IMG/VR virus record: IMGVR_UViG_3300017987_005478
Location: 63,918 to 127,917 of that record
DNA length: 64,000 nucleotides
Source: a virus
Lineage: Duplodnaviria > Caudoviricetes
Reading direction: 5' to 3' (one strand)
Position 1 is the first letter of the stretch; every line of letters begins with the position of its first letter. This document shows positions 17,236 to 58,686 of this stretch, piece after piece. The notes below the pieces were generated by a model that had not been told where the DNA came from, ran no database searches, and worked only from the letters and a program-made list of their open reading frames with translations. The translations under genes were made by a program, and so were the position numbers.

Positions 17236-20200
17236 TTACTTTGAAAGAATTAATGCTGTCATATAACTTGAGAGCAAATCTCTAGCTGGTGATCCTTTAG
17301 CAATACGAAATTCAGCATTGCCCTTTTGGACAATATCAGCAATAATCTCATTTTTTGTCACATGATCATCTGACAATGGACCCATTAACTCCGATAGCAG
17401 GGTTGGGCAGTTATAAGATATAAATGCGTATGTGTCCATTTCACCCAATCTCTGACCACCTTCTCGCCTTTTACCTGATGTTGGTTGTTTTGTTTTACCA
17501 GTAACAGGTCCTGTGGATCGAGCATGAGTTTTCTCTTCACTGATATGTTCAAGTTTATTGATATACATATATCCAACAGGAACAGGTTTCTTTGTTTTTG
17601 TATTATATTCTGGTAATGTAAGTTTGTATCCCGTTTTTAATCCAAGAAATTTTATCACTTCATATATATTTTGGTGTGAAGGTGATTTAAATGGTGGCAC
17701 CATAACAGGAACAAAACCAGAAGCCTGAACCTGCTTCATAAAAGCCTTAAATTTGGCATCAGACAATTTTGCAAAATTTGTCAGAAATGTTCCACTAAAA
17801 TCTTGTTTTGGGCTTCCATCTAATCTTGGAAATACTTTTCTAAAAAGAGTAAGTACTTGAGCTTTTGTTTTCATTTTTAAAACTTTGTTGCCCAATTCTT
17901 TAGAAATCAAACCTGTATATAGTTCAAGCAACTGTCCAACATTCATACGACCAATAATACCAATAGGATTTACTACAATATCAACTCGGTCGCCCCACGG
18001 AGTTCTTGGCATCAATTCTTCTTTTTCAATTAGACCAATAGTGCCCTTTGCTCCAAATCTATTAGTAAGCTTGTCTCCAATACCAATTCTCAATTCTTGC
18101 TCAATTTTAAATCTGACCAACACACCTTTTATTGGTGTTCCTCGAACAGTAACTTTATCTTTAGCTGATAAACCATGAATACGTCTGGTTCTTCGAATTA
18201 GTTTTGTCAGCTCTGGAAATTTATCATCTGCAGTATTTGAGAAGACCTCAATATCAACAATTGTGCCACCTGGACTCTTTTTGATCATTTGTCCGCCAGC
18301 ATAATCAACACCTTCTTCATCCTCATCTATACCAAGTAATTCCTCCAGTTCGCCCATTGTCTTACGTAAAATTGGTTGACCTTTTTCAACCTTCTCACCA
18401 ATTTGACTGATAAACAGCAGTCGATCTTTTTCAGAAATTAATACTTCTTCAAAAATCCCATGCAAAGAAGTCAGGGTGTCGTCACGCACTAAACGATCAC
18501 TAATAGCAATACTATCCTCAAAGTTATAACCTTTGTAAGGCATAACGGCTACTAATAATGTTCGCCCAAGAGCAATACTGCCATCAGCCACACAACTACC
18601 CTCAGCCAAGATTTGATTGGTTTTAACTGTTTGACCAACTTTTACTTTGGATTGAAAAACACTTAACGTATCTTTACCAGATCCAGATCTTAAATGGACA
18701 GGAATTATTGAAATGTTTTGTTTTCCACCTTTTGAACACTGAATTGTAATATTATCTCCAGTAACAGCGGTCACTTTGCCCGCACACGGACTCTTTTTAA
18801 CGAAATTCTCCGATAACACATTTGTCAGTAATGATTCATAACCAGATTGAACTACAGGAGGTTCTGGATCCTTTAAAGGAACAACCTGTTTTTGTTGTGC
18901 TGAAAGCATGATAACCCTTGCTCCATCATTATTCTCAACAAATGGAGTGAGGGTTGTAGTTGTGGACAATACTCCTGATCCCTCTTTATCTGAAAATTCT
19001 TTTGGTAGAAATAATCCCCTCGCAGAAGTCACAAAAGCGTTTACAGTCAAGTGTTGTACAATACCAATATTTCCACCTTCTGGTGTATCAAGAGGGTCAA
19101 TATTTCCAAAATAACTATTATGAACACTTCGAGCATTAGTTTGGATTGCTCTCTTATCTGGAATGCCTCCAACATTCTTTCCAACGGGCGATGTCCTTGT
19201 CATCGTAGACATCTCTTCTATTGGGTTGGAATATTCCATATCTTGAACAATTTCTAATTGGTTAAAGTCAAGAAGAACTTTCTTTTGGTTAATTTTAAAT
19301 TCAGCATCCTCATTACCAGCTAATCTTTGTTCTCTATAATCTGTATGTGCTGCCTGTACTTGCTTTTGAACCAAATGGACAATAGTTTCAGAACCTCTGA
19401 TTCTTTGGTTGGTTAAATCATTTCTATCTTGGACAAATCCCTCAATTACCTTTGTTGCCATATAATACATAATATCTTTCAAGTTTGAGGGTAATTGTTT
19501 ATTGACTAATACTTGCTTTGCAACAGGATCAACCATATTTTCCAACATATTATTAATTAACCAAGTAGTGTTTACTCTGCCTGTCATGGCAACAAGCAGA
19601 CTGTCAAAATATTCTTTCGTACCAAATTTCTCTTTTATATCATATGTGTGAACTTTGGCTTTACCAAAGGAGTCGCAAAACTCCTCTTTTAGTTCAGTAT
19701 CTACCTTGGTAAATCTGATATATGATTGTCCAATATTGAAGATGAATTTTTCACCTTTCTTTGGTTTGGTGTCTGTAATTTCATAACCCAATCCATAATC
19801 TTTCAATATTTGCTCAAAACCAAAACTGTAAAATGAGATAATCGATAGAGGCAACTTATATGAACCAAAGTAGGCTTCAAGATACTTTAAACGTTTTGTC
19901 CGCTTACTATGAATTCTGAACTTGGAATATGAACTCTCAAAACGAGACTCATAGGGAGCTGGAAATGTAATCGGACATAACACAAGTTGATTAATAAGAC
20001 ACTTCTTTTTACCATAAACTCTAAACGTGCCTGTATTTGGATCAATTTTCGGTATGTCAATTTGGACTACGTGAGGCTTTCCGTCTTTATCATTTAGAGT
20101 TATTTGAGCTGTTTCAATGTCAGATTTATTAAGCTCTCCCTTTGCATGAGCTTTCTTAATAACTTCAACTTTCTTAACAAATAACGGCTGTTCTTTTGAT

Positions 20201-21327
20201 TCCAAAACCTTGAATGAATTTTTCAAATCCTTTTTAAGATTCTTTTGGAAGTCAACTTGTCTTTTCTGAAAAAGGTGTTCTGGCGTCTTTTTATCGACAG
20301 CTTTAGATGGGTTACTTGTAGCAACAAAAACTTCGTCAGTTGATGAAACCGGTTCCTCTGGTTTTAACATTTCATCAGCATAGTTTTTGTCAACTGCAAT
20401 GAGAGCTTTACCTAAATTTTTTGGTGCAATTGCTCTTGCCATTGCTGTGGATTTTTGAGGATCACCATTCCCTTTTGTAAGGATAGCAGCAATTGCAACT
20501 CTTTTAATATCATCACTACTAGCCGCCTTCGACGCGATTTCATCCCGTTTTTTGGGTGAAACCTCCATGTAATCGGCTATCGCACCTCGAATCGCCGCCT
20601 TATTAGCAGGAGTAACCTGGTCACCAATTTCATCCATTACTTCTTTTGTTGTCTCACCAACTTCCATTTCTACTTCTGCCTCAACGTGACGGAGCTTAAT
20701 GGATTTGAGAATTTGATACACTCTTGTGAATTGAAATTCTCTGTCTTTGATAAGAAGTCTATGACGTGACCCATTCTCTCCAACTAAGGTCAAAATCATA
20801 TGATCAAAAGAAAATTCCATATCTTTGAGTTTTCTCAAAACGGGGAATATTTTACGATTAAGTAGAGACGGCATTTCCTTTGAGATATTAACAGAATACA
20901 TCAATACTTTTTGGTAATGAGGGGGATATCTATCAAATGCTCTTTGGAGCATATTCATTAAAAGAAAACCAGCTCTTTGTCTATAATTTGAGACTTTATA
21001 TGTAGTATCAATAGCGGACATATATTTTGTCACATCGTAGAAGATATTTTGTCCAATCGGGACTTTCTGGTTTTCATTATAGGCGTATAACCCGTATGTT
21101 CGATATAGCTTTTTTGTATCTGGAGCTAACCATGTCCTTGGAACCTTCGTTCTGGGTACAACAACATAACGAGCATCAATAGATCTAATTCCGAGATGTG
21201 GATAATCATCAACCAACAAAGAATTCTCAGAAAAATAGACAATGACAAATGGTTCTGCTGCCTTTTGCGGGAAACGTATCCCTTTGACTAGATGTGTGTA
21301 TTGTCGTAACCCTTTAAATTGAATCAT
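17236..21327 (-). CDS. rpoB: Phage multisubunit RNA polymerase beta subunit with long N-terminal extension
   Basis: GTFRVYG..INQL, DTPEGGNIG, NDGARVIM, GYNFEDS, GDKLTNRFGAKG, GRMNVGQ, KLEH, GGQRLGEMD. Confidence 0.95.
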   Translation of the reverse strand: MIQFKGLRQYTHLVKGIRFPQKAAEPFVIVYFSENSLLVDDYPHLGIRSIDARYVVVPRTKVPRTWLAPDTKKLYRTYGLYAYNENQKVPIGQNIFYDVTKYMSAIDTTYKVSNYRQRAGFLLMNMLQRAFDRYPPHYQKVLMYSVNISKEMPSLLNRKIFPVLRKLKDMEFSFDHMILTLVGENGSRHRLLIKDREFQFTRVYQILKSIKLRHVEAEVEMEVGETTKEVMDEIGDQVTPANKAAIRGAIADYMEVSPKKRDEIASKAASSDDIKRVAIAAILTKGNGDPQKSTAMARAIAPKNLGKALIAVDKNYADEMLKPEEPVSSTDEVFVATSNPSKAVDKKTPEHLFQKRQVDFQKNLKKDLKNSFKVLESKEQPLFVKKVEVIKKAHAKGELNKSDIETAQITLNDKDGKPHVVQIDIPKIDPNTGTFRVYGKKKCLINQLVLCPITFPAPYESRFESSYSKFRIHSKRTKRLKYLEAYFGSYKLPLSIISFYSFGFEQILKDYGLGYEITDTKPKKGEKFIFNIGQSYIRFTKVDTELKEEFCDSFGKAKVHTYDIKEKFGTKEYFDSLLVAMTGRVNTTWLINNMLENMVDPVAKQVLVNKQLPSNLKDIMYYMATKVIEGFVQDRNDLTNQRIRGSETIVHLVQKQVQAAHTDYREQRLAGNEDAEFKINQKKVLLDFNQLEIVQDMEYSNPIEEMSTMTRTSPVGKNVGGIPDKRAIQTNARSVHNSYFGNIDPLDTPEGGNIGIVQHLTVNAFVTSARGLFLPKEFSDKEGSGVLSTTTTLTPFVENNDGARVIMLSAQQKQVVPLKDPEPPVVQSGYESLLTNVLSENFVKKSPCAGKVTAVTGDNITIQCSKGGKQNISIIPVHLRSGSGKDTLSVFQSKVKVGQTVKTNQILAEGSCVADGSIALGRTLLVAVMPYKGYNFEDSIAISDRLVRDDTLTSLHGIFEEVLISEKDRLLFISQIGEKVEKGQPILRKTMGELEELLGIDEDEEGVDYAGGQMIKKSPGGTIVDIEVFSNTADDKFPELTKLIRRTRRIHGLSAKDKVTVRGTPIKGVLVRFKIEQELRIGIGDKLTNRFGAKGTIGLIEKEELMPRTPWGDRVDIVVNPIGIIGRMNVGQLLELYTGLISKELGNKVLKMKTKAQVLTLFRKVFPRLDGSPKQDFSGTFLTNFAKLSDAKFKAFMKQVQASGFVPVMVPPFKSPSHQNIYEVIKFLGLKTGYKLTLPEYNTKTKKPVPVGYMYINKLEHISEEKTHARSTGPVTGKTKQPTSGKRREGGQRLGEMDTYAFISYNCPTLLSELMGPLSDDHVTKNEIIADIVQKGNAEFRIAKGSPARDLLSSYMTALILSK

Positions 21328-24300
21328 TATTTCTTTTCCTCAACCAATGTTCCTGTAAGAACTTTCTCTAGAATGCTTGGTTCTACCTCTTCCTCGGAAA
21401 TTAAACCATTACGGATTGCCTCTCCAATATTTTCAAAAGCAAGACCTTGTAGGAAACCGCTAGAAAATACGACCTTTTTAATATTGACAAGAACAGGATC
21501 CCAAGTATTTCCTAATCTAGCTGGTATACTCAAGTTATTTTTATCTCGAATACAATTACTTAGCAAGCATTCCAAATGAACCATATCCATATCTGCTCCA
21601 ATTTCAGCATAAACACGGACAAGTTTCAAAATGAGATGGTCAACACTTTTGAATACTTCTTTGCCTGCAAGCAAACGTTCCACGTATAATGCTTGCTCTT
21701 TTAATTCCAAAGCTTCAAGAGGAATTTCTAAAATAACACTTCCGGGAATATAACGGCAATTAATTGACTTTTTCTTTATAAGCTCGAATTCTTGTTTTTT
21801 GATATCAACAGGATAGTCCAGAACCATATTGAACATTTTGTCTTCAAATTCGATTCTTGAGGATAGACCACTCAACCAAATACTATCCTCTTTTATTTCA
21901 ATATTTTTGCTTTCAGTATAATCCATTAGATCAATTAGTAATTCACAACCTTTTTTACAGACAAGAGATCCACCCTCTTGTACAATATATTTCTTAAGAG
22001 TGGACATATCTAAATCAGCAATTGGATCATTATTAATAATGTCTTGGAGCATATCCTTTTGTTTGATTGTGACAGCTCCGCCTGTGTGGAAGGTGCGCAT
22101 GATTAACTGTGTGCCCTTCTCACCAATGACCTGCGCGGCCAGTACTCCTACATATGGTGTCCGATGTCGTTGTAAGAGTCTACCATAGCAAGTAAGACAT
22201 AATTTTCTGCTACGACAATAGATTGGACTTCTTAATTGAATCACATCACCAGGCTTGAATTTCTCTGGGTCAAATTCTGTTACTTTACCTCTATAAATAT
22301 GAAATCGACCGCTCAATCTACTAATGATATCTTTTGTCAATTTTAATGAAACGGTTTTCTTTGTTCCACAGTCTCTGAGATGTGTATGGGCTTCTAAATT
22401 ATTCAATACAAATGCTAGTTTTCTGGACATATAACCTGTAGTCGCAGTATTGATAACTCGGTCAATAATTCCTTTTCTAGCTCCTGTTGAGGAGTTAAAA
22501 TACTCGGTTGGACTTAAACCATCTGCAAACGATGCGGAAATAACAGGGAGGATATTTCCTTCTGAGTCTGCAATGATACCTTTTGCAACCAGAATCTGCA
22601 TAGGCTGACCCCAACCTTTTGTTGATCCTGATTCTGTAAGATCGTATAAACCAGAATCTTCAAGCTTTTTCTTGACAATAGTATACATTTGTTCTAATAT
22701 CGCCATAGCCTCATCTGTATCTTTGCCTTTTAATTGTTTCTTTAGTTGGTAGACCTTTGCAGGTACTTCAAAATCATCCAGCGTAATACTCGACCCCATA
22801 ATTGTTGCAAATTTAAATCCGAGTTTCTCCATACGAGATATACTCTCTCTTGCAATCTCTCCCCCATATGTATCAACCATTTTGGAAATGATACTATTTG
22901 CAACCTTTTTTGTTGCTCTCTGATTCACAAACGGGTAATTCCTTGGAAGACAACTATTAAACAATGCTTTTCCCATGGTCGTATTAACACCACGAAATTT
23001 GACAGCGATATATGGGTCGGTTGCTTTTTCCAAATCTTCTGGAGAAACCTCTTTTGGAGAATTTTTTGGTTTAACATCTTTTGTGATTGAATATAATCCA
23101 ACCATCATTTCTTTAGACAAAGAAAATGTGATTGCAGTTGATGATGAACCGGATTCTGCTCTGAGCATTTTTGCCTTGGCTTCCTCTTGTGCTTCATCTG
23201 TTAATGGATGATATAACGCCATTGCATCACCATCAAAGTCTGCATTATGTCCGCCAACCTGCATTGTACACATTTGAATTGTATTGCCTGTAATCAAGAC
23301 AGGTTTATATGCTCGCACAGATTCAGCTTGTAATGCCGGGTCACGTTTAGCTAAAACAACTCTATCCATCATAGCTACTTCTGTAGCTTCATAAAATATC
23401 TTATACAGTGTGTCTGGTATTTTATCACCAGATTTAATTGCTTTTAATACTTTACGAACACTGTCCACAGATAGTTCAAGCTCGTTAAATGCTTTAATCT
23501 CATTAGATAACATTTCCTTATCAATTCGACCAGCATATAATAACTGGTGTAAAATAAACGGCTCAAACAGTCCCACAGCCATTCTAAACGGAACACCAAT
23601 TTCATTAACCTTGAGGTCAGGACCTGGTGTAATAACCGCTCTACCGCTAAAGTCTACACGTTTAGAAAGGAGTTGACTCCTAATAATACCTTGTTTTTTA
23701 GCAACCTTAGTATGAATATACTTATGGTGTTCAACAATTGCGGTTTGTAAAGAATAGTTTAAAATATCAAAAAGTGGACCAGAACCAGATGCACTTCTCA
23801 CTTGTAGAGCTTTTCTCATAATGTCCATATAGACATCATTCATGGTATCAATAGTCCATTGGTCATCTTCATCTTTATATGCTGGTCTATGCTCTGGTGG
23901 TATGACAGGCAATCTACTTAAAAAGAGTGTTCCTGTTTTATATGCATTTTGAATGACTTTATTTAGTTTTGTGCGGTCTGTTGTTTCTTCCCTGAATTTG
24001 ATTTTTGGAAACATTTTAATAAATGCTGCAATACCTGTTACACCATTTTCATCCTCTACTAGCGCGCCACTAGCATCTAGACTAAAATTCTTCTCTGTTG
24101 AAATAAACTTGACTATTTTACCATTGAGGCGTATCAGAATTTTTAATGCCTCCGGATGGATGATTTTCGCATGCAAATCAATATACGAAAATGTGCTTCT
24201 TCTTTCTTTATCTGTGATTCCGAAAATTGATTCAGAAAACAGACCACCAACATGGAACTCGCCTGCTCTAGTAAAATATTCAGTTGTTGTAACAGGTTTG

Positions 24301-24341
24301 AGTTTCTTCGTAAACTCATCCATATTCAGGAATCGAATCAT
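21327..24341 (-). CDS. rpoC: Phage multisubunit RNA polymerase beta' subunit
   Basis: GLFSESIFG, LPVIPPEHRP, KRVDFSGRAVI, catalytic NADFDGD, TATTGYMSRKL, DCGT/RSPIYC/CLTCYG zinc site, TQLIMRTFHTGG trigger loop. Confidence 0.96.
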   Translation of the reverse strand: MIRFLNMDEFTKKLKPVTTTEYFTRAGEFHVGGLFSESIFGITDKERRSTFSYIDLHAKIIHPEALKILIRLNGKIVKFISTEKNFSLDASGALVEDENGVTGIAAFIKMFPKIKFREETTDRTKLNKVIQNAYKTGTLFLSRLPVIPPEHRPAYKDEDDQWTIDTMNDVYMDIMRKALQVRSASGSGPLFDILNYSLQTAIVEHHKYIHTKVAKKQGIIRSQLLSKRVDFSGRAVITPGPDLKVNEIGVPFRMAVGLFEPFILHQLLYAGRIDKEMLSNEIKAFNELELSVDSVRKVLKAIKSGDKIPDTLYKIFYEATEVAMMDRVVLAKRDPALQAESVRAYKPVLITGNTIQMCTMQVGGHNADFDGDAMALYHPLTDEAQEEAKAKMLRAESGSSSTAITFSLSKEMMVGLYSITKDVKPKNSPKEVSPEDLEKATDPYIAVKFRGVNTTMGKALFNSCLPRNYPFVNQRATKKVANSIISKMVDTYGGEIARESISRMEKLGFKFATIMGSSITLDDFEVPAKVYQLKKQLKGKDTDEAMAILEQMYTIVKKKLEDSGLYDLTESGSTKGWGQPMQILVAKGIIADSEGNILPVISASFADGLSPTEYFNSSTGARKGIIDRVINTATTGYMSRKLAFVLNNLEAHTHLRDCGTKKTVSLKLTKDIISRLSGRFHIYRGKVTEFDPEKFKPGDVIQLRSPIYCRSRKLCLTCYGRLLQRHRTPYVGVLAAQVIGEKGTQLIMRTFHTGGAVTIKQKDMLQDIINNDPIADLDMSTLKKYIVQEGGSLVCKKGCELLIDLMDYTESKNIEIKEDSIWLSGLSSRIEFEDKMFNMVLDYPVDIKKQEFELIKKKSINCRYIPGSVILEIPLEALELKEQALYVERLLAGKEVFKSVDHLILKLVRVYAEIGADMDMVHLECLLSNCIRDKNNLSIPARLGNTWDPVLVNIKKVVFSSGFLQGLAFENIGEAIRNGLISEEEVEPSILEKVLTGTLVEEKK

Positions 24342-47272: not shown

Positions 47273-48256
47273 CTAAATTATGAACTTCTCTACAACAACA
47301 GGCGTGTCGTTAAAATCTTTTCCCATTTTATTGTAATAGACAGTAATCGTATCTATAATATGTTTATTGTAATGTTTAATCTTTTTGTAGTAATCAAGAT
47401 CAACATTCCTATCTGATAAAATATGAGCATTGACACGAAATATTGATTCATGAAATGCAATACTTTTTATTAAAGCATGATACGACGTTGAAAGTCCAGC
47501 AGCATATAAACAACTCTGACTTTTCATGTCTATTGTGTCAAAAATATGTTCGGCGTATATGTCAAAAATTCCCTCAGCAAGAACCACATCTCTAGAAAAT
47601 TTCTTCGTACTGGGAAGTTTATAATAATCGAGGAACTTAGATGATTGGACTCTAAGTTTATAATATCGGAAGGATGATTGAGGATCAATATTTCTTAAAA
47701 TGAGGACTGAGCCGTGTTCTGTTAAAAACCCAACAAAATTTGTTTGTAGAAAATCTTTGATTCTAAATAGTTGTTCATCTACTGCAATATCATTCATTGC
47801 AATAAAAGCATTTATATCAAACACCAATCCTTTAATACTCGGAATACTAACATTTGCAAATTTTAAGCGTTGTTGAATATATCGATATTTATACTGAAAA
47901 ATATTTTCATTTAATGGTGGAGTTTTAATTTCTGTCGGACGAATAACATTCCTGTCAAATTCCAACCGTTTTTTAACGTTGGCTTTAACAAGTTCTTTAT
48001 TAACAAATTTATCAGGGTCTGCTCCACTAATATACCTTAATAATTTTGTTATAGTTCCCTTTTGTTCACAACCAGCATGAAAACAATGAAAAATAGGAGC
48101 TTCTATGCTTATCCATAAATGATAGTGACCTTTATCTTGACCTGCTTCACACCAAGGACAACGACAAACGATATTTTTTGGAGTTGTTTTTATTGGATCT
48201 CCAAGGTGGTCTCGCAAGTATTCAATAAATTCGTCTTCATAGATTCCTACTGACAA
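47273..48256 (-). CDS. DNA primase (T4 gp61-like)
   Basis: N-terminal CPWC...HCFHAGC zinc domain, YIQQR, TOPRIM LAEGIFD. Confidence 0.82.
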   Translation of the reverse strand: MSVGIYEDEFIEYLRDHLGDPIKTTPKNIVCRCPWCEAGQDKGHYHLWISIEAPIFHCFHAGCEQKGTITKLLRYISGADPDKFVNKELVKANVKKRLEFDRNVIRPTEIKTPPLNENIFQYKYRYIQQRLKFANVSIPSIKGLVFDINAFIAMNDIAVDEQLFRIKDFLQTNFVGFLTEHGSVLILRNIDPQSSFRYYKLRVQSSKFLDYYKLPSTKKFSRDVVLAEGIFDIYAEHIFDTIDMKSQSCLYAAGLSTSYHALIKSIAFHESIFRVNAHILSDRNVDLDYYKKIKHYNKHIIDTITVYYNKMGKDFNDTPVVVEKFII

Positions 48257-50965: not shown

Positions 50966-51215
50966 TTGTCAGCTCTCCTTTCACTGTGACGCAGCCTTTT
51001 TTCTCAACGCTTTCACCATATGATGCTGCCTTATTCATAGCATAAAGAGCATAACACACTACAAAACTTGCGATACACCATAACAAGACCGTAAACACAG
51101 TAGCCTCCTTACCAGAAATCTGAAATGACAAACAAATTCTTTTTGGCTCTGGTGACAGCAGTATATAACCACCTTTTGTAATAATCTGCATCCCAATGTT
51201 TTGTATACTGCTCAA
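50958..51215 (-). CDS. Small membrane protein (start uncertain)
   Basis: One hydrophobic segment VFTVLLWCIASFVVCYALYAM; 5' part overlaps helicase gene. Confidence 0.4.
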   Translation of the reverse strand: MSSIQNIGMQIITKGGYILLSPEPKRICLSFQISGKEATVFTVLLWCIASFVVCYALYAMNKAASYGESVEKKGCVTVKGELTIE

Positions 51216-52347
51216 AAAGAACTACATTACTCCATTCCGACCCCTGACTTCTATGAACAGAAATACAATATCCATAATCAAAAAGATCCATGGTTTTATA
51301 TCCTGTCCTTTTAAATATTCCTTTATTTTTCTTCCTGCCTATTTCATCATAACTACCATCATAAGAATCTTGCCCAAAACAGCAATTATGAACTAAGTTT
51401 GTGTAAAATTCTCCAAAATCATCCATTTCGATTGTCATCTCATAGATTCTTGGAGCTCGTCTTGAAAACCAAACCATTGTCCCAAGTTGACCGTTCATCA
51501 CTTTTGTTGTATGATTATTCTTGAGACAAATCACTCGTTCATCAGGATATGGTTCGGGTAATGTATATTTATATTTATCCCGAATCATTTGGTTAAGTTT
51601 TACCCTAGTCGCATTAAAACCACACAAAATAATATAATTCCTATCCCATGCAATTTTGTTAAAAAGTCTCTGCGTCTCGGCAAATTTCCAACTAAATTTA
51701 TAAACCTTATGAGTATCTTTTGAATACACACCTGGTTTAATATAACCATAATTCCTGATATCCATTGACAACTGAATAATAGGATTATCTGCAGCTTGTC
51801 TATGAATCTTAGTTAACACATGATTTGGATTTTCTAAAACATTAAAGTTATCACCAACAGGGGGAAGCTGACCATGATCACCAACTGCAATTATTGGGAC
51901 ACCATACATTTTCAAATCATTCCAGATCTCAAAGTTGACCATTGATGCTTCATCAACTATTATTAAATCAGCATCAATCTCTTTAGCTAAATGCCAACCT
52001 GCAATGACTTTACGACCTTGTTTATCCACTATATAACGCGGTGTATAAATAAGTCCATGAATAGTGCCAGTATAATCACCTCGAGCAAGAGCGTCTGCTT
52101 CCTTCAATCTTTTTCTCAAAACAGAAGAAGCCTTACCTGTAAAACAACAGAAAGCTATTTTAAAACGACCAATCTTAATCGTCCGTATTCTTTTTGCTAA
52201 TTCGGCAATCAGAAAGGTTTTCCCAGTTCCTGCATATCCTGCAATTGTAAGGAGTTTTTGATTCTTCTGTCTTGGTCTAAATGTAAATAGAGATTTGTTT
52301 TTTATCACCCGATCACAGATTCGCTCTTGTTCCTCGCTGAGATCCAA
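51109..52347 (-). CDS. dda: SF1B helicase, Dda/RecD-like
   Basis: GYAGTGKT, FTGKA, TIH, VDEASM, GDHGQLPPV, HRQ, HRSQGSEW, YTAVTRA. Confidence 0.9.
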   Translation of the reverse strand: MDLSEEQERICDRVIKNKSLFTFRPRQKNQKLLTIAGYAGTGKTFLIAELAKRIRTIKIGRFKIAFCCFTGKASSVLRKRLKEADALARGDYTGTIHGLIYTPRYIVDKQGRKVIAGWHLAKEIDADLIIVDEASMVNFEIWNDLKMYGVPIIAVGDHGQLPPVGDNFNVLENPNHVLTKIHRQAADNPIIQLSMDIRNYGYIKPGVYSKDTHKVYKFSWKFAETQRLFNKIAWDRNYIILCGFNATRVKLNQMIRDKYKYTLPEPYPDERVICLKNNHTTKVMNGQLGTMVWFSRRAPRIYEMTIEMDDFGEFYTNLVHNCCFGQDSYDGSYDEIGRKKNKGIFKRTGYKTMDLFDYGYCISVHRSQGSEWSNVVLFEQYTKHWDADYYKRWLYTAVTRAKKNLFVISDFW

Positions 52348-53080: not shown

Positions 53081-53134
53081 ATCTCCTTTTAAAATTTGTT
53101 CGGACTCGATAAAAATACTACTAACAACTATCTT

Positions 53135-53152
53135 AGTAAATAATATATATAG
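53135..53152 (-). promoter_or_regulatory. Putative phage promoter, class A, at the strand-divergence point
   Basis: Minus strand CTATATATATTATTTACT; head of the ~53-kb minus-strand gene run. Confidence 0.55.
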
Positions 53153-53232
53153 AGTTGTGTTCTTTAAGATATTTTCATTGGTTCACGTAACATAATAATG
53201 GAGTAATATTGAATAGTATGAAAGGAGATCTT

Positions 53233-54306
53233 ATGTTGTATATTGCAGAGCGTAGTGTGAATAAATGCTTCTATCCAATTATTCCAAAACGCGGCAAAAA
53301 ATTAGAAGGTGTATATAAAAAACCAGCATTTGAAGCAACACCAGGATCAAGATGGACTCTCAATTGTTACAAATTTATGGATTTTTTAGCTAGCAAAATA
53401 AAAGATATTCATGATACAAAATTTAGACAAGTTAGAGGCAGAAAGTTTAATAGTAAAGAATCAATGGCTTCAGAAGCATTTCCTTTATTACAACATCCAC
53501 ATGAAATTAACAGATTTGATGAACGTGAGAAATTTCCTGAAGATCCAAATGTGAAAAATATCATTCAACTTTATACAAAAACATTTGAGATATCACTTTC
53601 TGAAGTTTTAAAATCACCATGTTTTCTCAAGACAAACACCGCAGTAGTCAGAAATACAATACAAACAATTTCAAATTGTCAATTAAAATGTCGTTTTGAA
53701 TTTAAAACACAAAATCAAAAAACTAGAAAAGAAAATTTCCAACAATCTTGTAATATAGCTAATGGTTATTATACATTATTTCGTGCTGAAGAAATTTCTG
53801 GTGATGAGGGAAAAGATGGTAAAAAATATGGAACTAAGTATAAAATTCATTTTGAAAATAAACTAGGCGCTTTATTTCTGCATAATGTTTTAACCGGAGG
53901 TTATAATATCATCGGAGATAACGAACTTGATCCTTTAGTTGTTTTTAATTTTTATAGATTAACAGAATATGCAAGTATTTTCTTTCGAAAATTTTTGATG
54001 CATCTTAATACAGTTCCTATTATCACAGTCTCTCAAGATCTTGTTTTAGATGCTCTTGGAGTAATAACCCCAAATCAAACTAACAGAAAAAAGTTATTTA
54101 TCAGATTATTGAATGAATTAAGTATTGGACATGACTTAATCACTATAGTATCTAAAAATAATGATTTTTCAGAAGTTAGAATTAAAAGAATTAAACAACC
54201 TAGTATTGATGATGATTATATTCCAAACCCAAATGAACACAACCAATCATTAGCTGAAGATGCTTTGAAAATTACAGATCCGTTTGACAATGTTGATGGA
54301 TGGTAA
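53233..54306 (+). CDS. Putative replication initiator (plasmid Rep/TrfA-like winged helix)
   Basis: FYRLTEYASIFFRKF...LVLDALGV...RKKLFIRLLNELSIG fits a Rep C-terminal wHTH pattern; immediately followed by 21-bp tandem repeats; start adjusted to ATG after AAAGGAG. Confidence 0.6.
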   Translation: MLYIAERSVNKCFYPIIPKRGKKLEGVYKKPAFEATPGSRWTLNCYKFMDFLASKIKDIHDTKFRQVRGRKFNSKESMASEAFPLLQHPHEINRFDEREKFPEDPNVKNIIQLYTKTFEISLSEVLKSPCFLKTNTAVVRNTIQTISNCQLKCRFEFKTQNQKTRKENFQQSCNIANGYYTLFRAEEISGDEGKDGKKYGTKYKIHFENKLGALFLHNVLTGGYNIIGDNELDPLVVFNFYRLTEYASIFFRKFLMHLNTVPIITVSQDLVLDALGVITPNQTNRKKLFIRLLNELSIGHDLITIVSKNNDFSEVRIKRIKQPSIDDDYIPNPNEHNQSLAEDALKITDPFDNVDGW

Positions 54307-54307
54307 A

Positions 54308-54389
54308 CCTATAACCTAGTTAAACTATCCTATAACCTAGTTAAACTATCCTATAACCTAGTTAAACTATCCTATAACCTAGTTAAACT
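54308..54389. repeat. Tandem 21-bp direct repeats (iteron-like), 3 full copies plus 19 bp
   Basis: CCTATAACCTAGTTAAACTAT at 54308, 54329, 54350; partial copy at 54371; no spacers. Confidence 0.97.
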
Positions 54390-54430
54390 TTTCGGGTCTT
54401 TTTTATAATAAATTCAACTGTGTATTCTCC

Positions 54431-54455
54431 TTAATCATTATTATATAATGATTAA
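54431..54455. repeat. AT-rich palindrome in putative origin
   Basis: TTAATCATTAT-TAT-ATAATGATTAA, 11-bp perfect arms. Confidence 0.9.
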
Positions 54456-54682
54456 TGCGACTCCTTACCTTTAGACATATATATGTAATTATCTATGTAC
54501 AAAAAAGGACTCAGAAAAGAGATTGAATAACAAAAAGAAAAGAACATACAACGTTCCCCTTCGTCCATCCGGCGCTGGGGGCGCCTTGTCCTCCGGTCCC
54601 GTTTTGAATAAATGAATATTTTATCAGTAAAGGTAACATAATATAAATAGATTAGAGATCAGTATGAAAGGAGATTTTCGAG

Positions 54683-56566
54683 ATGAGTTATGACGAAAAC
54701 AGAGAGTGGGTTAATCGACAGTTAATTTTTTACGAAGACAAAATTTATAACACTGGTAGCTCACTTTCAATTGACATTGCAACATCTACTTCAGATGGAA
54801 AATCATTTTCCCCACCAAAATTATACTTACGTCTAAGAAGTCTTGATGGAAGAAATAGAACATTCAGTTTAGATTATATTTCTTCTATGGACTTGATTAT
54901 GTCTTTGGTTAAAGCAAACTTCAAAAATCCAGATCTTGTTTGTCAACAAGGAGAAAATAGTGCGGTAACAAAACGAGGCTACAATATCCAATTGCATATA
55001 GTAGCAGGTATTGCACCAGATCAAAGTCAAATAGTTTCAATTAGTTTGATTATAAATGAATCAGATCAAGGTAAAATTGCACTACCATACACGATTTTTA
55101 TGGGTATATTTAATTTGTTTATTCTCTTCAAAGAGAAACAGTGGGAAATTTTCTCAGATTTACAAAATGAATATAACATAAAAATTCAATCGAATACAAT
55201 AAAAGAAATTAGAGGATTTTTAAAGACACTTCCAGGTTATCTTGGAAACACTACTGTAAATAATCAAACAGTTGAAAGTCCAGAGGAGCCAGCTCAAGAA
55301 ACTCCGACAGAATCAAATGAACTTTTAGCAGATTTTGAGAAGTTTGCTAAAGAAACGGATCCAAGAATTCCTGAAGTAGAACATATGGAGATGGAATTGG
55401 CTACTGGTGAAATGGATAAACCAGTTGTACAAGAAGTAAAGAGCAAACTATTTGAAGAAGTATTTCAGAACAGTGTAAAGAATTTTATAGGATTGGTTGA
55501 AACAATTTACCATGATCCAAAATGGCCTACGGAAGCATTTATTTCAAATGTTCAACAAAGATTGGGTATCGAATCATTTATGCCAGGTATTTCTGCCGAT
55601 GAACATAAATCACTTGTATATATGTCCAAAGTAAATTTCTGGACAGCATTACGAGGTTATCTGCAACACCAAATAGTAATTCCAAGTTCTGTTGGAATTT
55701 TGAGATATTCTCCTTCACAAGCACCTGGAGTTGAAAATATAGAATTAGCATATGATATTTTGACACTGTTTGCTTACATACACAGAATCAGGGAACGAAG
55801 AGAATCAAGAGATGCTGATGCTAACAACAATCTGGCGATCACGTACACAGCGGCGCGATGCTTTTTAGATCCTCTCGTCTTTAGTTTCTTAGTTAATAGC
55901 AAACCAGACGTTGTCAAAAATTGTGTGTCAACTCGATATAAATATTATAAGGAAAAAGGTTTCTTCGATCTCGAAGAAGATGTACAACTTAACGAGGTTG
56001 AAGGTTTCATGGATAAGCTCGGACCAATACTCTCAAAAGTGACGGATGTAAAGACTGGTCACGAGTTTGGATATGAAAAAGGTATTTTGTTATTTCCATT
56101 CGAGAATAAACATACTTTAGAACAAATTACAAATGAACTAGTGGATAAAACAGTAAAGATTCGACTTGGGGAAAGTAAAGATGAAAAACCCAAGAAAGTC
56201 GACCATAAAAAGAAAACAGTTAAATACAATTCCAATATTCATAGAGTGTTAAGTGAAGTTGATTTTCTCGAGCAAATTCCAAAATCTATAAAAGAAGCGT
56301 TCATGAAGTATATCATGGAACTCGAAGAAAATTATGATTATGCCGCTTTTCCCCTTGAGGAACTCGGAGATGATGTTGTAAAAGCATTGTATGTCTGGAA
56401 CGAAAGTGATAATAAAAAAGAATCATACACTTCATTTAGAACCAATTTAGAACAATGTATAATGAAGAAGAATGATATTATTGCAAAAGTGAAGGGCTCG
56501 AAGGGTGTTGAAGATACAGTTGGTGGAAATGATGAGGAATTTGATTTTAGTAATTTGGTATTGTAG
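54683..56566 (+). CDS. Large hypothetical protein with acidic-aromatic tail
   Basis: 627 aa, RBS AAGGAG, ends NDEEFDFSNLVL. Confidence 0.8.
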   Translation: MSYDENREWVNRQLIFYEDKIYNTGSSLSIDIATSTSDGKSFSPPKLYLRLRSLDGRNRTFSLDYISSMDLIMSLVKANFKNPDLVCQQGENSAVTKRGYNIQLHIVAGIAPDQSQIVSISLIINESDQGKIALPYTIFMGIFNLFILFKEKQWEIFSDLQNEYNIKIQSNTIKEIRGFLKTLPGYLGNTTVNNQTVESPEEPAQETPTESNELLADFEKFAKETDPRIPEVEHMEMELATGEMDKPVVQEVKSKLFEEVFQNSVKNFIGLVETIYHDPKWPTEAFISNVQQRLGIESFMPGISADEHKSLVYMSKVNFWTALRGYLQHQIVIPSSVGILRYSPSQAPGVENIELAYDILTLFAYIHRIRERRESRDADANNNLAITYTAARCFLDPLVFSFLVNSKPDVVKNCVSTRYKYYKEKGFFDLEEDVQLNEVEGFMDKLGPILSKVTDVKTGHEFGYEKGILLFPFENKHTLEQITNELVDKTVKIRLGESKDEKPKKVDHKKKTVKYNSNIHRVLSEVDFLEQIPKSIKEAFMKYIMELEENYDYAAFPLEELGDDVVKALYVWNESDNKKESYTSFRTNLEQCIMKKNDIIAKVKGSKGVEDTVGGNDEEFDFSNLVL

Positions 56567-56581
56567 AAAGGAGAATTAAGA

Positions 56582-57208
56582 ATGGCGTTAACACTAGGTA
56601 AAGCACTAGACCGCTGTTACAATTTAAGAATACCATTTTTGGATGGTTATTACAATATAGGAGTATTTTTCAACAGACGTTCAACATTTTTGTTGTTTTC
56701 AGTAGATCCTGACTTTCCAAGAAAGAAGACTATTGAAAGATCTCCAAAAATATCAATGTTTAAAAATTTAGAGAGTTCTCGATTTGCAGAAACATTTCTT
56801 GAGTTACATAATTATCGTAGTAATAATCTGGATATATTGAATCAATTTCAAACGGTTCGTCCTGAATATTACCATGATGTTAATACAGTTTTAAATGAAA
56901 CAATAAGTGTAGCTAAAATTGAGTTGGACGATAGAACTCTTTATGATACGTTGACAATATATGGTCTGTGTCTGACAGCATATACAAATGAATTTATATT
57001 TCTTATTGCTGAGAGACAGAGCATTGTAAGGAAATTACAAAAGAAGATTGTTAGAACCACAGCTATGCAAATAGCTACCACACCAGGAATCGCCCTATTA
57101 GACGACTTCTATAATGAAAAGCTAGAGTCCAAAAGACTACATGAAACACCTGTAATTATACCATCAGATGAGAAAGAGGTTATCAGACTTGGCGAACAAG
57201 AGGAGTAG
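56582..57208 (+). CDS. Hypothetical protein
   Basis: 208-aa ORF with RBS AAGGAG. Confidence 0.75.
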   Translation: MALTLGKALDRCYNLRIPFLDGYYNIGVFFNRRSTFLLFSVDPDFPRKKTIERSPKISMFKNLESSRFAETFLELHNYRSNNLDILNQFQTVRPEYYHDVNTVLNETISVAKIELDDRTLYDTLTIYGLCLTAYTNEFIFLIAERQSIVRKLQKKIVRTTAMQIATTPGIALLDDFYNEKLESKRLHETPVIIPSDEKEVIRLGEQEE

Positions 57209-57210
57209 AT

Positions 57211-58686
57211 ATGCCTTCTGACGCTGATATGACGGAACACCGTTATCATTATTATTTCATTCATAATGTATTTGGTCATTTCTTTAAAGATGTTTTGGAT
57301 TATTTTTCAGATTATCTTTATCCAAGATTCCAGTGGACCGTCGTGGGTACATATGAAAAAGCTGTAGAGTATATTGATAAACAAACAAAGCTGGGACGTG
57401 AGGCTGATATGCCGAAGGTTCCAGCTTTGATTTTAAATCCAACGGGTGAATTTACTACTGCGGATGCAGCAGCAGGTGGTCGACAATTATGGAGATTTCC
57501 AAACTTGGCGCCTGGTCTTGCTAATTTGATTTTTGAACCGATATACACAGATGCTAATGTTGAAGTAAATGTATGTTTCTCCAGGTTTAAAGGCGAAATA
57601 GAACTTATTATGCTTCTGCCATCATTTTATGAATATTGTGATTTAAGAGTTTTATTGATTCAGATATTTGGTGGTCTTGAAAGGTGGATATACCCGGTAT
57701 GGTTTAACAGTTTCATTATTTTTGAAGAGGATGCGTGGAACTACACATATGAAAACGATTTAACAGGTGAAAGATACCAAATTGACTGGGAAAATCATGG
57801 AGCATCCGAAAGACTTATTAAATCAACCGCCCGTAATGAAAGAGTCTTTCCTTGTCGGATTAAACCAACATTTAGATTGATGTCTCTAACTGATGGTTCA
57901 ACCAGATATGGAGGAACAGATAGACTTCCTGATTGGAGATTAAATGCCACAGTTGAATACGAAGTTGAGTTCCCTTCATACATGACATTTAGATCAGATG
58001 CTCTTCGTCCATCCGGTTCCCCACCTCCAATTATGAATCTTAAATATGGTTCTTCTTATTCATCTTATGAACAATTCGCTCAAGATATTGGTGACAAAAA
58101 GCATATCATTAGTCAAGGTTCTGATGAATACGAAATCACAAATAGATACTTTCATCAAATTACATCTACTGAAGCAGATTCAACAGCAGACATCCAGATT
58201 GAGTTACCAATAACGATTGATACAACAAGCGAATTAGATAGTTTTGTAGTTGTTACAAAATATGGTTTGATGGCGTATGGTGAACATTATCAACTAATAA
58301 ATAATGGTAATACGCTGGTAATTTTCTCTAGCGATCCTGAAGATGTTCTTATTGATAGATTATATACAACTATACGAGAGAAACAACCAGATGGAACCTA
58401 CGTTAAAAAGAGCGTTGCTACGCAGAGATATAAGAAAGATTTAGATGGTTCTTTTGTATCAACACCATCTGGTCCGTACGTAAAAGATATGCAGCAAAGT
58501 TACTCTATTACAAAGGATGGTCGATTTTATAAAGATCCTCTTGGACCATATGTATATCGAGGTAATGATGTATATGAAGAAAGGGAAGAAGATGATTATG
58601 ATTTAGTTGTCAAAGGTCATTATGTTCCTTTTGAATTAGAAGAAGGGGACTTTATTGAATTCTATATAATGAAACAAATTGCATAA
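57211..58686 (+). CDS. Putative virion (tail-completion-like) protein
   Basis: 491 aa; PALIL...EIELIM...NATVEYEVEFP pattern loosely like tail-completion folds; function uncertain. Confidence 0.45.
   Translation: MPSDADMTEHRYHYYFIHNVFGHFFKDVLDYFSDYLYPRFQWTVVGTYEKAVEYIDKQTKLGREADMPKVPALILNPTGEFTTADAAAGGRQLWRFPNLAPGLANLIFEPIYTDANVEVNVCFSRFKGEIELIMLLPSFYEYCDLRVLLIQIFGGLERWIYPVWFNSFIIFEEDAWNYTYENDLTGERYQIDWENHGASERLIKSTARNERVFPCRIKPTFRLMSLTDGSTRYGGTDRLPDWRLNATVEYEVEFPSYMTFRSDALRPSGSPPPIMNLKYGSSYSSYEQFAQDIGDKKHIISQGSDEYEITNRYFHQITSTEADSTADIQIELPITIDTTSELDSFVVVTKYGLMAYGEHYQLINNGNTLVIFSSDPEDVLIDRLYTTIREKQPDGTYVKKSVATQRYKKDLDGSFVSTPSGPYVKDMQQSYSITKDGRFYKDPLGPYVYRGNDVYEEREEDDYDLVVKGHYVPFELEEGDFIEFYIMKQIA

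Follow-up and report, generated by a model that had tools for sequence, protein, structure and literature searches.

Where, and by what means, does a jumbo phage begin to copy its genome? The start of jumbo-phage replication is essentially undescribed, and the locus analyzed here raises the question in a concrete form. It lies in a stretch of 64,000 nucleotides (nt), called the window below, which is the right half of the 127,917-bp IMG/VR virus record IMGVR_UViG_3300017987_005478 (CheckV completeness, 41%); positions are those of the window unless a contig position is given. At the main strand switch, the first gene of the plus-strand block encodes a protein of 357 amino acids (aa), and directly behind this gene stand four 21-bp direct repeats and an AT-rich tract. 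An earlier reading of the letters without database searches (the sequence-only reading) had proposed a plasmid-type origin here. Because a gene that resembles plasmid initiators adjoins its own repeats of ∼21 bases and easily melted DNA, this is probably the place where copying of the genome starts, and on balance we favor a replication origin of the phage whose initiator is Rep-like and binds iterons. The elements of the proposed origin are as follows.

53081 to 53232, no strand: divergent intergenic region with promoter-like motifs, 5' of the 357-aa gene
53233 to 54306, plus strand: 357-aa gene, proposed Rep-like iteron-binding initiator (unnamed family; HMMER relatives and ESM Atlas)
54308 to 54391, plus strand: four 21-bp direct repeats, proposed iterons (Tandem Repeats Finder; arrays in five of six related loci)
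54392 to 54552, no strand: AT-rich spacer, proposed DNA unwinding element (GC content of 20 to 30% in 40-bp windows)
54553 to 54600, plus strand: isolated GC-rich patch with a GGCGC/GCGCC hairpin (GC windows; hairpins of the relatives)

A gene, its repeats, and an AT-rich tract at the strand switch

Up to 53080, open reading frames (ORFs) of at least 100 aa run on the minus strand; from 53209/53233 onward, they run on the plus strand. The 357-aa gene starts with ATG at 53233, with a ribosome-binding site (GAAAGGAG) 8 nt upstream, and ends with TAA at 54304 to 54306. One base past this stop codon begins an array that Tandem Repeats Finder places at 54308 to 54389, with a period of 21, 3.9 copies, 100% matches, and a score of 164, the highest among the 29 rows for the window. 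The repeat unit, CCTATAACCTAGTTAAACTAT, is present in four copies at 54308 to 54391, the fourth with one mismatch. When up to three mismatches are allowed, the 21-mer occurs four times in the window and not once in any of 100 shuffles; the same four sites are its only matches in the whole record. A CRISPR-like array (clustered regularly interspaced short palindromic repeats) was considered and rejected, as there are no spacers, and slippage junk was rejected because the place and the period of the array are conserved in relatives. Four public DNA runs from three studies hold the stretch, as contigs only, and are possibly its source; no RNA run was listed for it. Their 31-mer unitig assemblies all break inside the array (54318 to 54389), the array unitigs have 1.7 to 2.7 times the depth of the flanks, as expected for about four copies, and no base differences are seen over 6 kb.

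Related loci were fetched via the protein alone, which yielded one viral contig (from the same record as locus L011) and six metagenome contigs; searches of viral contigs with two further family members, P0002 and P0006, found no loci. The comparison covers seven loci, the window and L006 to L011, which together comprise 104,081 bases; since L006 and L007 are closely related, the independent lineages are closer to five or six than to seven. An array of 20 to 22 bp stands at the 3' end of the family gene in six of the seven loci:

window: 21 bp, 3.9 copies
L006: 21 bp, 2.3 copies
L007: 20 to 21 bp, 3 copies
L008: 21 bp, 5.1 copies, perfect
L009: 22 bp, 3.7 copies
L010: 21 bp, 5 copies, overlapping the gene end

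Across the seven loci, arrays with periods of 20 to 22 and scores of at least 60 are found solely between −64 and +67 nt of the stop codon of the family gene. The surroundings are conserved as well. One strand carries an ORF the size of a clamp loader (327 to 328 aa) and another of 131 to 135 aa (L008 and L011), and, at the place of the Dda-like helicase gene of the window, a Dda-sized ORF (404 to 413 aa in L006, L008, and L011; 396 aa in L009). The opposite strand carries the family gene, an intergenic gap of 380 to 700 bp, and then further ORFs: in L006, L008, and L011, one of ∼630 to 660 aa (631 to 660 aa in the relatives) and one of ∼210 aa, followed in L008 and L011 only by a third of 408 to 491 aa.

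The sequence of the repeats changes with the protein. The two arrays of the closest protein pair (57% identity) have 18 of 21 repeat positions in common, against a null maximum of 16 in 2,000 trials, and the other 14 array pairs, whose proteins are 26 to 39% identical, share 9 to 14 positions, with a null mean of 11.4. This covariation, which is drawn from a single close pair, is the pattern that would be expected of a protein and its cognate sites. The locus also has what characterizes an iteron array, at least three phased direct repeats beside the proposed initiator gene, conserved in place and not in sequence.

Behind the array, the AT-rich spacer contains a perfect palindrome with 11-bp arms (TTAATCATTAT at 54431 to 54441 and ATAATGATTAA at 54445 to 54455), which is made from a TAATCA/TGATTA motif and which a repeat search extends to 16-nt arms at 88%. 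Duplex stability was calculated as SantaLucia nearest-neighbor sums. Windows starting at 54396 to 54399, in the AT-rich tract, belong to the least stable 0.03% of the record, as do 60- to 100-bp windows of the divergent region at 53081 to 53232, and 4 of the 10 least stable nonoverlapping 60-bp windows of the 128-kb record fall within 53113 to 54605. By nearest-neighbor free energy, the array is thus adjoined by an AT-rich, easily melted element of the kind found at iteron origins. Beyond the tract, GC content rises to 65 to 72% (40-bp windows) at ∼54544 to 54610, one of only 4 noncoding patches among the 22 patches of the record with at least 65% GC.

Much of this had been noted in the sequence-only reading, and its descriptions hold: the strand switch at ∼53.15 kb, the perfect 21-bp repeats 1 bp after the stop codon, the AT-rich tract with its 11-bp-arm palindrome at 54431 to 54455, which is read directly from the letters, and the isolated GC-rich patch. 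It had also proposed to check whether relatives keep repeats after the gene and whether the repeat sequence covaries with the protein, and both checks came out in its favor. Together, these results support the view that the gene, the repeats, and the AT-rich tract behave as one conserved module of iteron-origin type.

The cumulative GC skew of the record reaches its minimum at the locus (contig bin 116,001 to 117,000), and that of a 149-kb relative (G001; 48% complete) falls in the 42-kb bin, next to the gene, which stands at the 43.2 | 44.05 kb divergence. The extremum that the sequence-only reading expected near 53 to 54.5 kb is thus present here and in the relative, but it is largely confounded with transcription direction; a skew minimum alone proves little, because skew tracks gene direction across the record. 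To separate an effect of replication from that of gene direction, we measured the coding-strand skew at third codon positions, which rescues the skew test only partly. In the record, this skew is 0.165 for 93 minus-strand genes of the left arm and 0.225 for 8 plus-strand genes of the right arm, all of them co-oriented, versus −0.052 for 14 counter-oriented genes of the left arm (P = 0.0009 versus the right arm); in the 149-kb relative, co-oriented genes have 0.208 (n = 91) and counter-oriented genes 0.056 (n = 10; P = 0.009). These values fit a transcription-independent strand bias that flips at or left of the locus.

Kinship of the 357-aa protein

The 357-aa protein matches no Pfam family and no PHROG, and tblastn detects no relative in 50,697 phage records or, at E values up to 1, in 72,556 plasmid records; word-index homologue searches returned only the protein itself, which a 183,522-bp contig carries in identical form. 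By comparison, when 1.84 billion cluster representatives were searched exhaustively with HMMER, 38 proteins had E values of ≤0.001, the query included, 26 of them with E values of ≤1e-10. A family alignment was made from 37 of the 38, leaving out a 104-aa fragment (P0038). It is conserved at the N terminus (SERGxN...P...W..CY..MD) and in the C-terminal half (F.HNI.TGGY..I...FY.LS..A..YR...L....V...LG....KK.F..II.EL.D..LI). A search of a 5.8-billion-protein collection with the family profile produced only 10 unnamed proteins. Among the 37 members, there is no match to the Pfam families of the lambda O, P1 RepA, SPP1 G38P, and P4 alpha proteins, no hidden Markov model (HMM) match to RPA (PF10134), and none to Rep_3 (PF01051 Rep3_N/PF21205 Rep3_C), which the 357-aa protein does not match either. 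What is new here is an unnamed protein family that lies beyond the profile reach of known Rep families.

Likeness to initiators emerges from protein language models and predicted structures. In an ESM Atlas feature search with the 357-aa protein, viral hypothetical clusters rank first, and the clusters that carry a family name are all plasmid initiators (RepA_C, RepC, TrfA, RPA, and Rep3_N), with scores of 0.93 to 0.94 and 179 to 190 of 256 features in common. The Atlas also holds a model of a homologue, P0037 (predicted template modeling [TM] score, 0.65; predicted local distance difference test, 0.62). P0037 is a secure member of the family, since a profile built without it matches it in hhalign with probabilities of 99.4 to 99.7% over 288 columns. 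Compared with its ten listed structure neighbors, the P0037 model gives TM scores (by query) of 0.59 to 0.69 over 250 to 258 aligned residues that span positions 1 to 339, and for six of these ten the aligned part bears the name "replication initiator protein A" (PF10134). Full-length structural likeness to RPA is seen here by proxy, through the P0037 model, with predicted models on both sides. On the basis of this proxy model and the language-model neighbors, a Rep-type winged-helix initiator fold appears likely but not established, and the 357-aa protein is likely a very divergent member of this fold class.

Two further observations concern the family. A C-terminal motif, [KTDN][VI][VIL][PDEQ][FILM], follows a basic linker in 12 of the 37 members and stands 3 to 9 residues before the C terminus in 11 of the 12; the tail of the 357-aa protein (54190 to 54303) is instead acidic, with DDDYIP and DPF. 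Such C-terminal motifs may be docking peptides for a replisome partner. P0036, from another sample, resembles MutY/HhH-GPD glycosylases in its N-terminal part (TIGR01084; E = 8.6e-41) and this family in its C-terminal half; it is a natural fusion or else a chimera that arose in assembly.

The phage around the locus and rival explanations

The contents of the record were assessed by PHROG scans of 127 ORFs, 62 from the window and 65 from the left half. Phage genes, both structural and for replication, are found throughout, and despite the IMG/VR label "provirus," no host flank is seen. Structural and packaging genes include those for tail sheath, baseplate, and large terminase, the last ∼85 kb from the 357-aa gene. 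Genes for replication and recombination encode an SbcCD-like nuclease, topoisomerase II, a UvsX-like recombinase, a RuvC-like resolvase, gp46/47-like recombination proteins, ribonucleotide reductase, primase, clamp loader, and a Dda-like helicase. The 357-aa gene heads the block with Dda, clamp loader, primase, UvsX, and topoisomerase II; the Dda-like gene is the third minus-strand ORF (at least 40 aa) back from the switch and lies 0.9 kb from the 357-aa gene. Multisubunit RNA polymerase beta/beta' genes are present too, as two pairs that lie apart, at contig positions 47891 to 54109 in the left half and at 17236 to 24341 of the window. The closest isolates by RNA polymerase, at ≤30% identity, are Cobetia phage Carin-5, Yersinia phage YerA41, and Listeria phage LPJP1. 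The sequence-only reading had called the genome that of a T4-like giant phage; this is apt for the replication genes only, because the record also encodes the two RNA polymerase sets. The neighbors that matter below are the following.

51109 to 52347, minus strand: Dda-like superfamily 1 helicase (phrog_325, E = 1.5e-89; Pfam AAA_19, UvrD_C_2, and AAA_30)
54633 to 54675, plus strand: second promoter-like motif and ribosome-binding site, 5' of the 627-aa gene
54683 to 56566, plus strand: 627-aa gene, conserved neighbor after the intergenic region, with no Pfam or PHROG family

The 627-aa gene is the first of three conserved genes at 54683 to 58686 (627, 208, and 491 aa) without a Pfam or PHROG family. 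Comparison with the 50,697 phage records by blastn as well as tblastn gave no match.

Upstream of the 357-aa gene, motif ATATATATAG occurs at 53143 to 53152, GTAACATAATA at 53187 to 53197, and AGTATGAAAGGAGAT at 53215 to 53229. In the record, GTAACATAATA and AGTATGAAAGGAGAT are found exactly twice each, both times separated by 17 nt, at 53187 to 53229 before the 357-aa gene and at 54633 to 54675 before the 627-aa gene. In relatives, the matching genes have AACATAWW ∼35 nt ahead of their ribosome-binding sites. The pair looks like a small promoter class common to the 357-aa and 627-aa transcription units. The motif ATATATATAG (wider context, AGTAAATWATATATATAG) has 6 sites in 128 kb, where ∼1 is expected; all are intergenic, and 5 of the 6 are on the plus strand irrespective of the direction of flanking genes (contig positions 1985, 9745, 33545, 80211, and 91387, in addition to the site 5' of the 357-aa gene). 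This motif may serve the phage as a promoter or in regulation.

Between the array and the next gene, two more features recur in the relatives. An interrupted GC-rich hairpin with a 4-nt loop is kept in position and not in sequence, within spacers that are otherwise 25 to 30% GC (window, 54553 to 54600; L006, 6597 to 6640 and 6285 to 6315; L007, 1738 to 1790; L008, 6496 to 6532 and 6231 to 6275; L011, 6165 to 6217). In the relatives, it stands just before the AACATAWW promoter-like motif of the next gene and has folding z scores of −1.7 to −5.5, whereas the patch of the window folds no better than shuffled sequence (z = −0.4). Between the 21-bp array and this hairpin lie two to four copies of TARTCY words, direct or inverted: the palindrome at 54431 to 54455 in the window, TAGTCC in L008 (6153 to 6186) and L007 (1673 to 1696), TAATCCC in L006 (6228 to 6245), TAATCT in L009 (3605 to 3625), and TAGTCT/AGACTA in L011 (6040 to 6077). 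The hairpin may be a terminator, a priming signal, or a cruciform, and the TARTCY words are a candidate site for a second DNA-binding factor; together, they could act as a terminator that keeps transcripts from running on into the next operon, serve as a signal for priming, or bind a second protein. Scans of the region with Rfam (E values up to 1) and for tRNAs found nothing, scans for sigma-70 promoters and terminators were not above shuffles, and RNA folding of the whole intergenic region gave a z score of −0.86. We recognized no DnaA-box-like element and no inverted half-iteron operator.

Several results weigh against an origin with a Rep-like initiator. As set out above, skew follows gene direction throughout the record, and even at third codon positions gene class remains a confound, because in both genomes the counter-oriented genes form one and the same syntenic structural block. 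For the fold, the evidence is a proxy, a modest-confidence predicted model of a 20%-identical homologue set against other predicted models. The 37 aligned members have no common family in Pfam, NCBIfam, or PHROGs; the family profile finds nothing significant among PDB sequences (best E = 0.18, to an unrelated protein); and a six-frame search of the whole record for Rep3_N, with E values up to 10, returned nothing. Profile-profile comparison by hhalign is also null. Against 16 RepE relatives, the family alignment gives a probability of 0.28% (E = 0.22), collinear over 152 columns, with the FY.LS..A..YR helix set opposite NPYAMRLYESL of RepE; against 16 diverse Rep3_N proteins of 220 to 420 aa (chosen from 25 ORFs at 25 of 30 loci, from 35 of 401 matching genomes), it gives 0.35%, and against 29 RPA proteins 0.11% (E = 0.52). 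The same procedure applied to controls gave 100% for RepE versus Rep_3, 31% for RPA versus Rep_3, and 1% for RepE versus RPA, so its reach is short and it misses true pairs with the same fold. The Rep-like winged helix of the sequence-only reading thus has the resemblance of the P0037 Atlas model to RPA in its favor, and the hhalign comparison with Rep_3 and RPA against it. At the DNA level, no iteron-like operator lies upstream of the 357-aa gene, and iteron subwords elsewhere are not above expectation; the most divergent locus, L011, lacks a 21-bp array and has only a pair of 10-nt words spaced by 21 bp, plus a repeat of 7 bp. Finally, no replicative helicase of the DnaB/gp41 type is visible in the 41%-complete record.

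The absence of a Rep family detectable by sequence also suits a different role, that of a phage transcription regulator whose tandem operators are the repeats, with replication starting elsewhere from R-loops or recombination, as in T4. Winged-helix proteins are frequently regulators; the array stands between two codirectional genes that share a promoter-like motif present nowhere else in the record, where it might control the downstream operon from 54683 or terminate and insulate its own transcript; and the UvsX, gp46/47-like, and RuvC-like genes could support recombination-dependent replication. Against this, the structural likeness spans the full length of two-domain initiators and not a single DNA-binding domain, and the array is ∼240 bp upstream of the next promoter-like motif, with the GC-rich hairpin between. 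Nor does a regulator predict that gene and array stand where skew is lowest, where the main divergence occurs, and where the DNA is least stable. We therefore consider a regulator unlikely. Repeats in tandem beside the gene of a binding protein are also typical of type II and III partition centromeres and of some pac sites, and the array could be a centromere-like or packaging-recognition site, with the protein as a segregation or terminase-docking adaptor and not an initiator. A protein of 357 aa with a Rep-like fold is unlike the small ParR/TubR adaptors and small terminase subunits, no ParA-type partition NTPase was found in the record, and the large terminase gene is far away; we give this explanation hardly any credence.

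The likeness to plasmid initiator families raises the question of whether the module serves plasmid maintenance, like P1 oriR/RepA, in a low-copy circular plasmid prophage whose lytic replication is driven by T4-type machinery elsewhere. The IMG/VR class of the record and the 59% of the genome that is unseen leave room for this. However, the record has phage structural and replication genes from end to end, the family has no relative among the plasmid records searched, and no match to ParB_N, ParA-type AAA_31, or tyrosine integrase (Phage_integrase) was found in the 128-kb record, nor to ParB_N in the 149-kb relative. A control search found the respective family in 10 to 14 of 14 control genomes each; absence of partition genes is nevertheless not proven, because the two records are only 41% and 48% complete. 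The module also fits a main and not an accessory origin, because it leads the block of lytic replication genes and coincides with the lowest skew of the genome. Initiator plus iterons is, moreover, the lytic origin design of lambda, SPP1, and P4. A plasmid-maintenance replicon is thus very unlikely. We see equally slight chances for a stand-alone plasmid-style replicon that keeps the ∼300-kb phage as an episome (plasmid prophage or carrier state) between lytic bursts, with repeat switching as a form of incompatibility; if this were true, switched repeat specificities would separate coinfecting giant phages as incompatibility groups separate plasmids. Of the plasmid-type origin that the sequence-only reading proposed, the conserved module of iteron-origin type at the skew minimum is supported, and the step to a very large phage-plasmid is not: with no ParA, ParB, or integrase match in the 41%-complete record, nothing positive supports a plasmid state.

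Proposed mechanism and comparison with known origins

If the locus is, as we think probable, an origin with an iteron-binding initiator, its working can be sketched by analogy with plasmids. Monomers of the initiator would bind the four 21-bp repeats just past their own stop codon; being two helical turns apart, the repeats would present them on the same face of the DNA. The complex would distort the DNA and help to open the adjoining AT-rich tract, and the bubble would be handed to the phage's own helicase, primase, and T4-type replisome, with forks leaving both ways along the two co-oriented gene blocks. Binding of the repeats, melting, and replisome loading are inferred from the known systems.

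The evidence for this origin candidate comes from predicted structure by proxy and from seven loci, and within these bounds the locus offers something concrete: one protein, one 84-bp site, and natural variants of specificity. If the interpretation is true, a plasmid-type, sequence-specific initiator feeds a T4-type replisome; a protein family of at least 37 cluster representatives that has so far no annotation gains a name; huge-phage genomes from metagenomes gain an anchor for orienting and binning; and the iterons of T4 oriE could be explained by analogy. The terms "origin of replication" and "replication origin" are absent from the full texts of two jumbo-phage overviews (PMC7824862 and PMC13282480). 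In the open-access literature searched, iterons together with jumbo phage led only to unrelated work on archaeal extrachromosomal elements, and nothing found there connects giant, huge, or mega-phages with iterons or with a replication initiator.

The combination of a winged-helix initiator, iterons, and an unwinding element is classical. In iteron plasmids, Rep binds the iterons, the DNA unwinding element melts, and the helicase is loaded (PMC4980987). We compared the locus with plasmids of the RPA (PF10134) type, the Rep_3 type (RepE of F, pi of R6K, and RepA of pPS10/pSC101), TrfA of RK2, and RepC of RSF1010. As in these, a proposed initiator gene stands beside four to five direct repeats of about two helical turns and a proposed AT-rich unwinding region, repeat specificity diverges with the protein, and the predicted model of a family member is RPA-like over its full length. 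Unlike in these, there is no detectable sequence or profile similarity and no relative in the 72,556 plasmid records, and the replicon is a ∼300-kb phage with its own replisome genes and RNA polymerases.

Among phages, lambda (ori/O), P1 (oriR/RepA), SPP1 (G38P), and P4 (alpha) each encode a protein that binds the origin at repeated sites, which lie within the gene for this protein or next to it and adjoin an AT-rich tract. The lambda O sites lie inside the gene, and the array of L010 likewise overlaps the 3' end of the family gene. These four phages use the helicase and polymerase of the host, whereas many replisome components are phage-encoded here. Phages of the phiKZ/AR9 type likewise have two large multisubunit RNA polymerase sets, which are combined here with T4-type replication and recombination genes.

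T4 itself offers a partial precedent. According to a review, the 12-nt iterons of its oriE have no proven role and no known binding protein; at oriE, oriF, and oriG, transcription diverges and base composition shifts; and oriE is the origin that suffers most from dda mutations (PMC3016281). The locus is like oriE in its direct repeats, its divergence with a compositional shift, its replisome genes of the same kind, and its Dda-like gene 0.9 kb away, and unlike oriE (repEA/repEB) in that 21-bp repeats are paired with a conserved adjacent gene and follow the divergence of that gene. What is new relative to all these systems is the setting, an uncultured jumbo-phage clade with T4-type replisome genes, RNA polymerases of its own, and a conserved spacer architecture.

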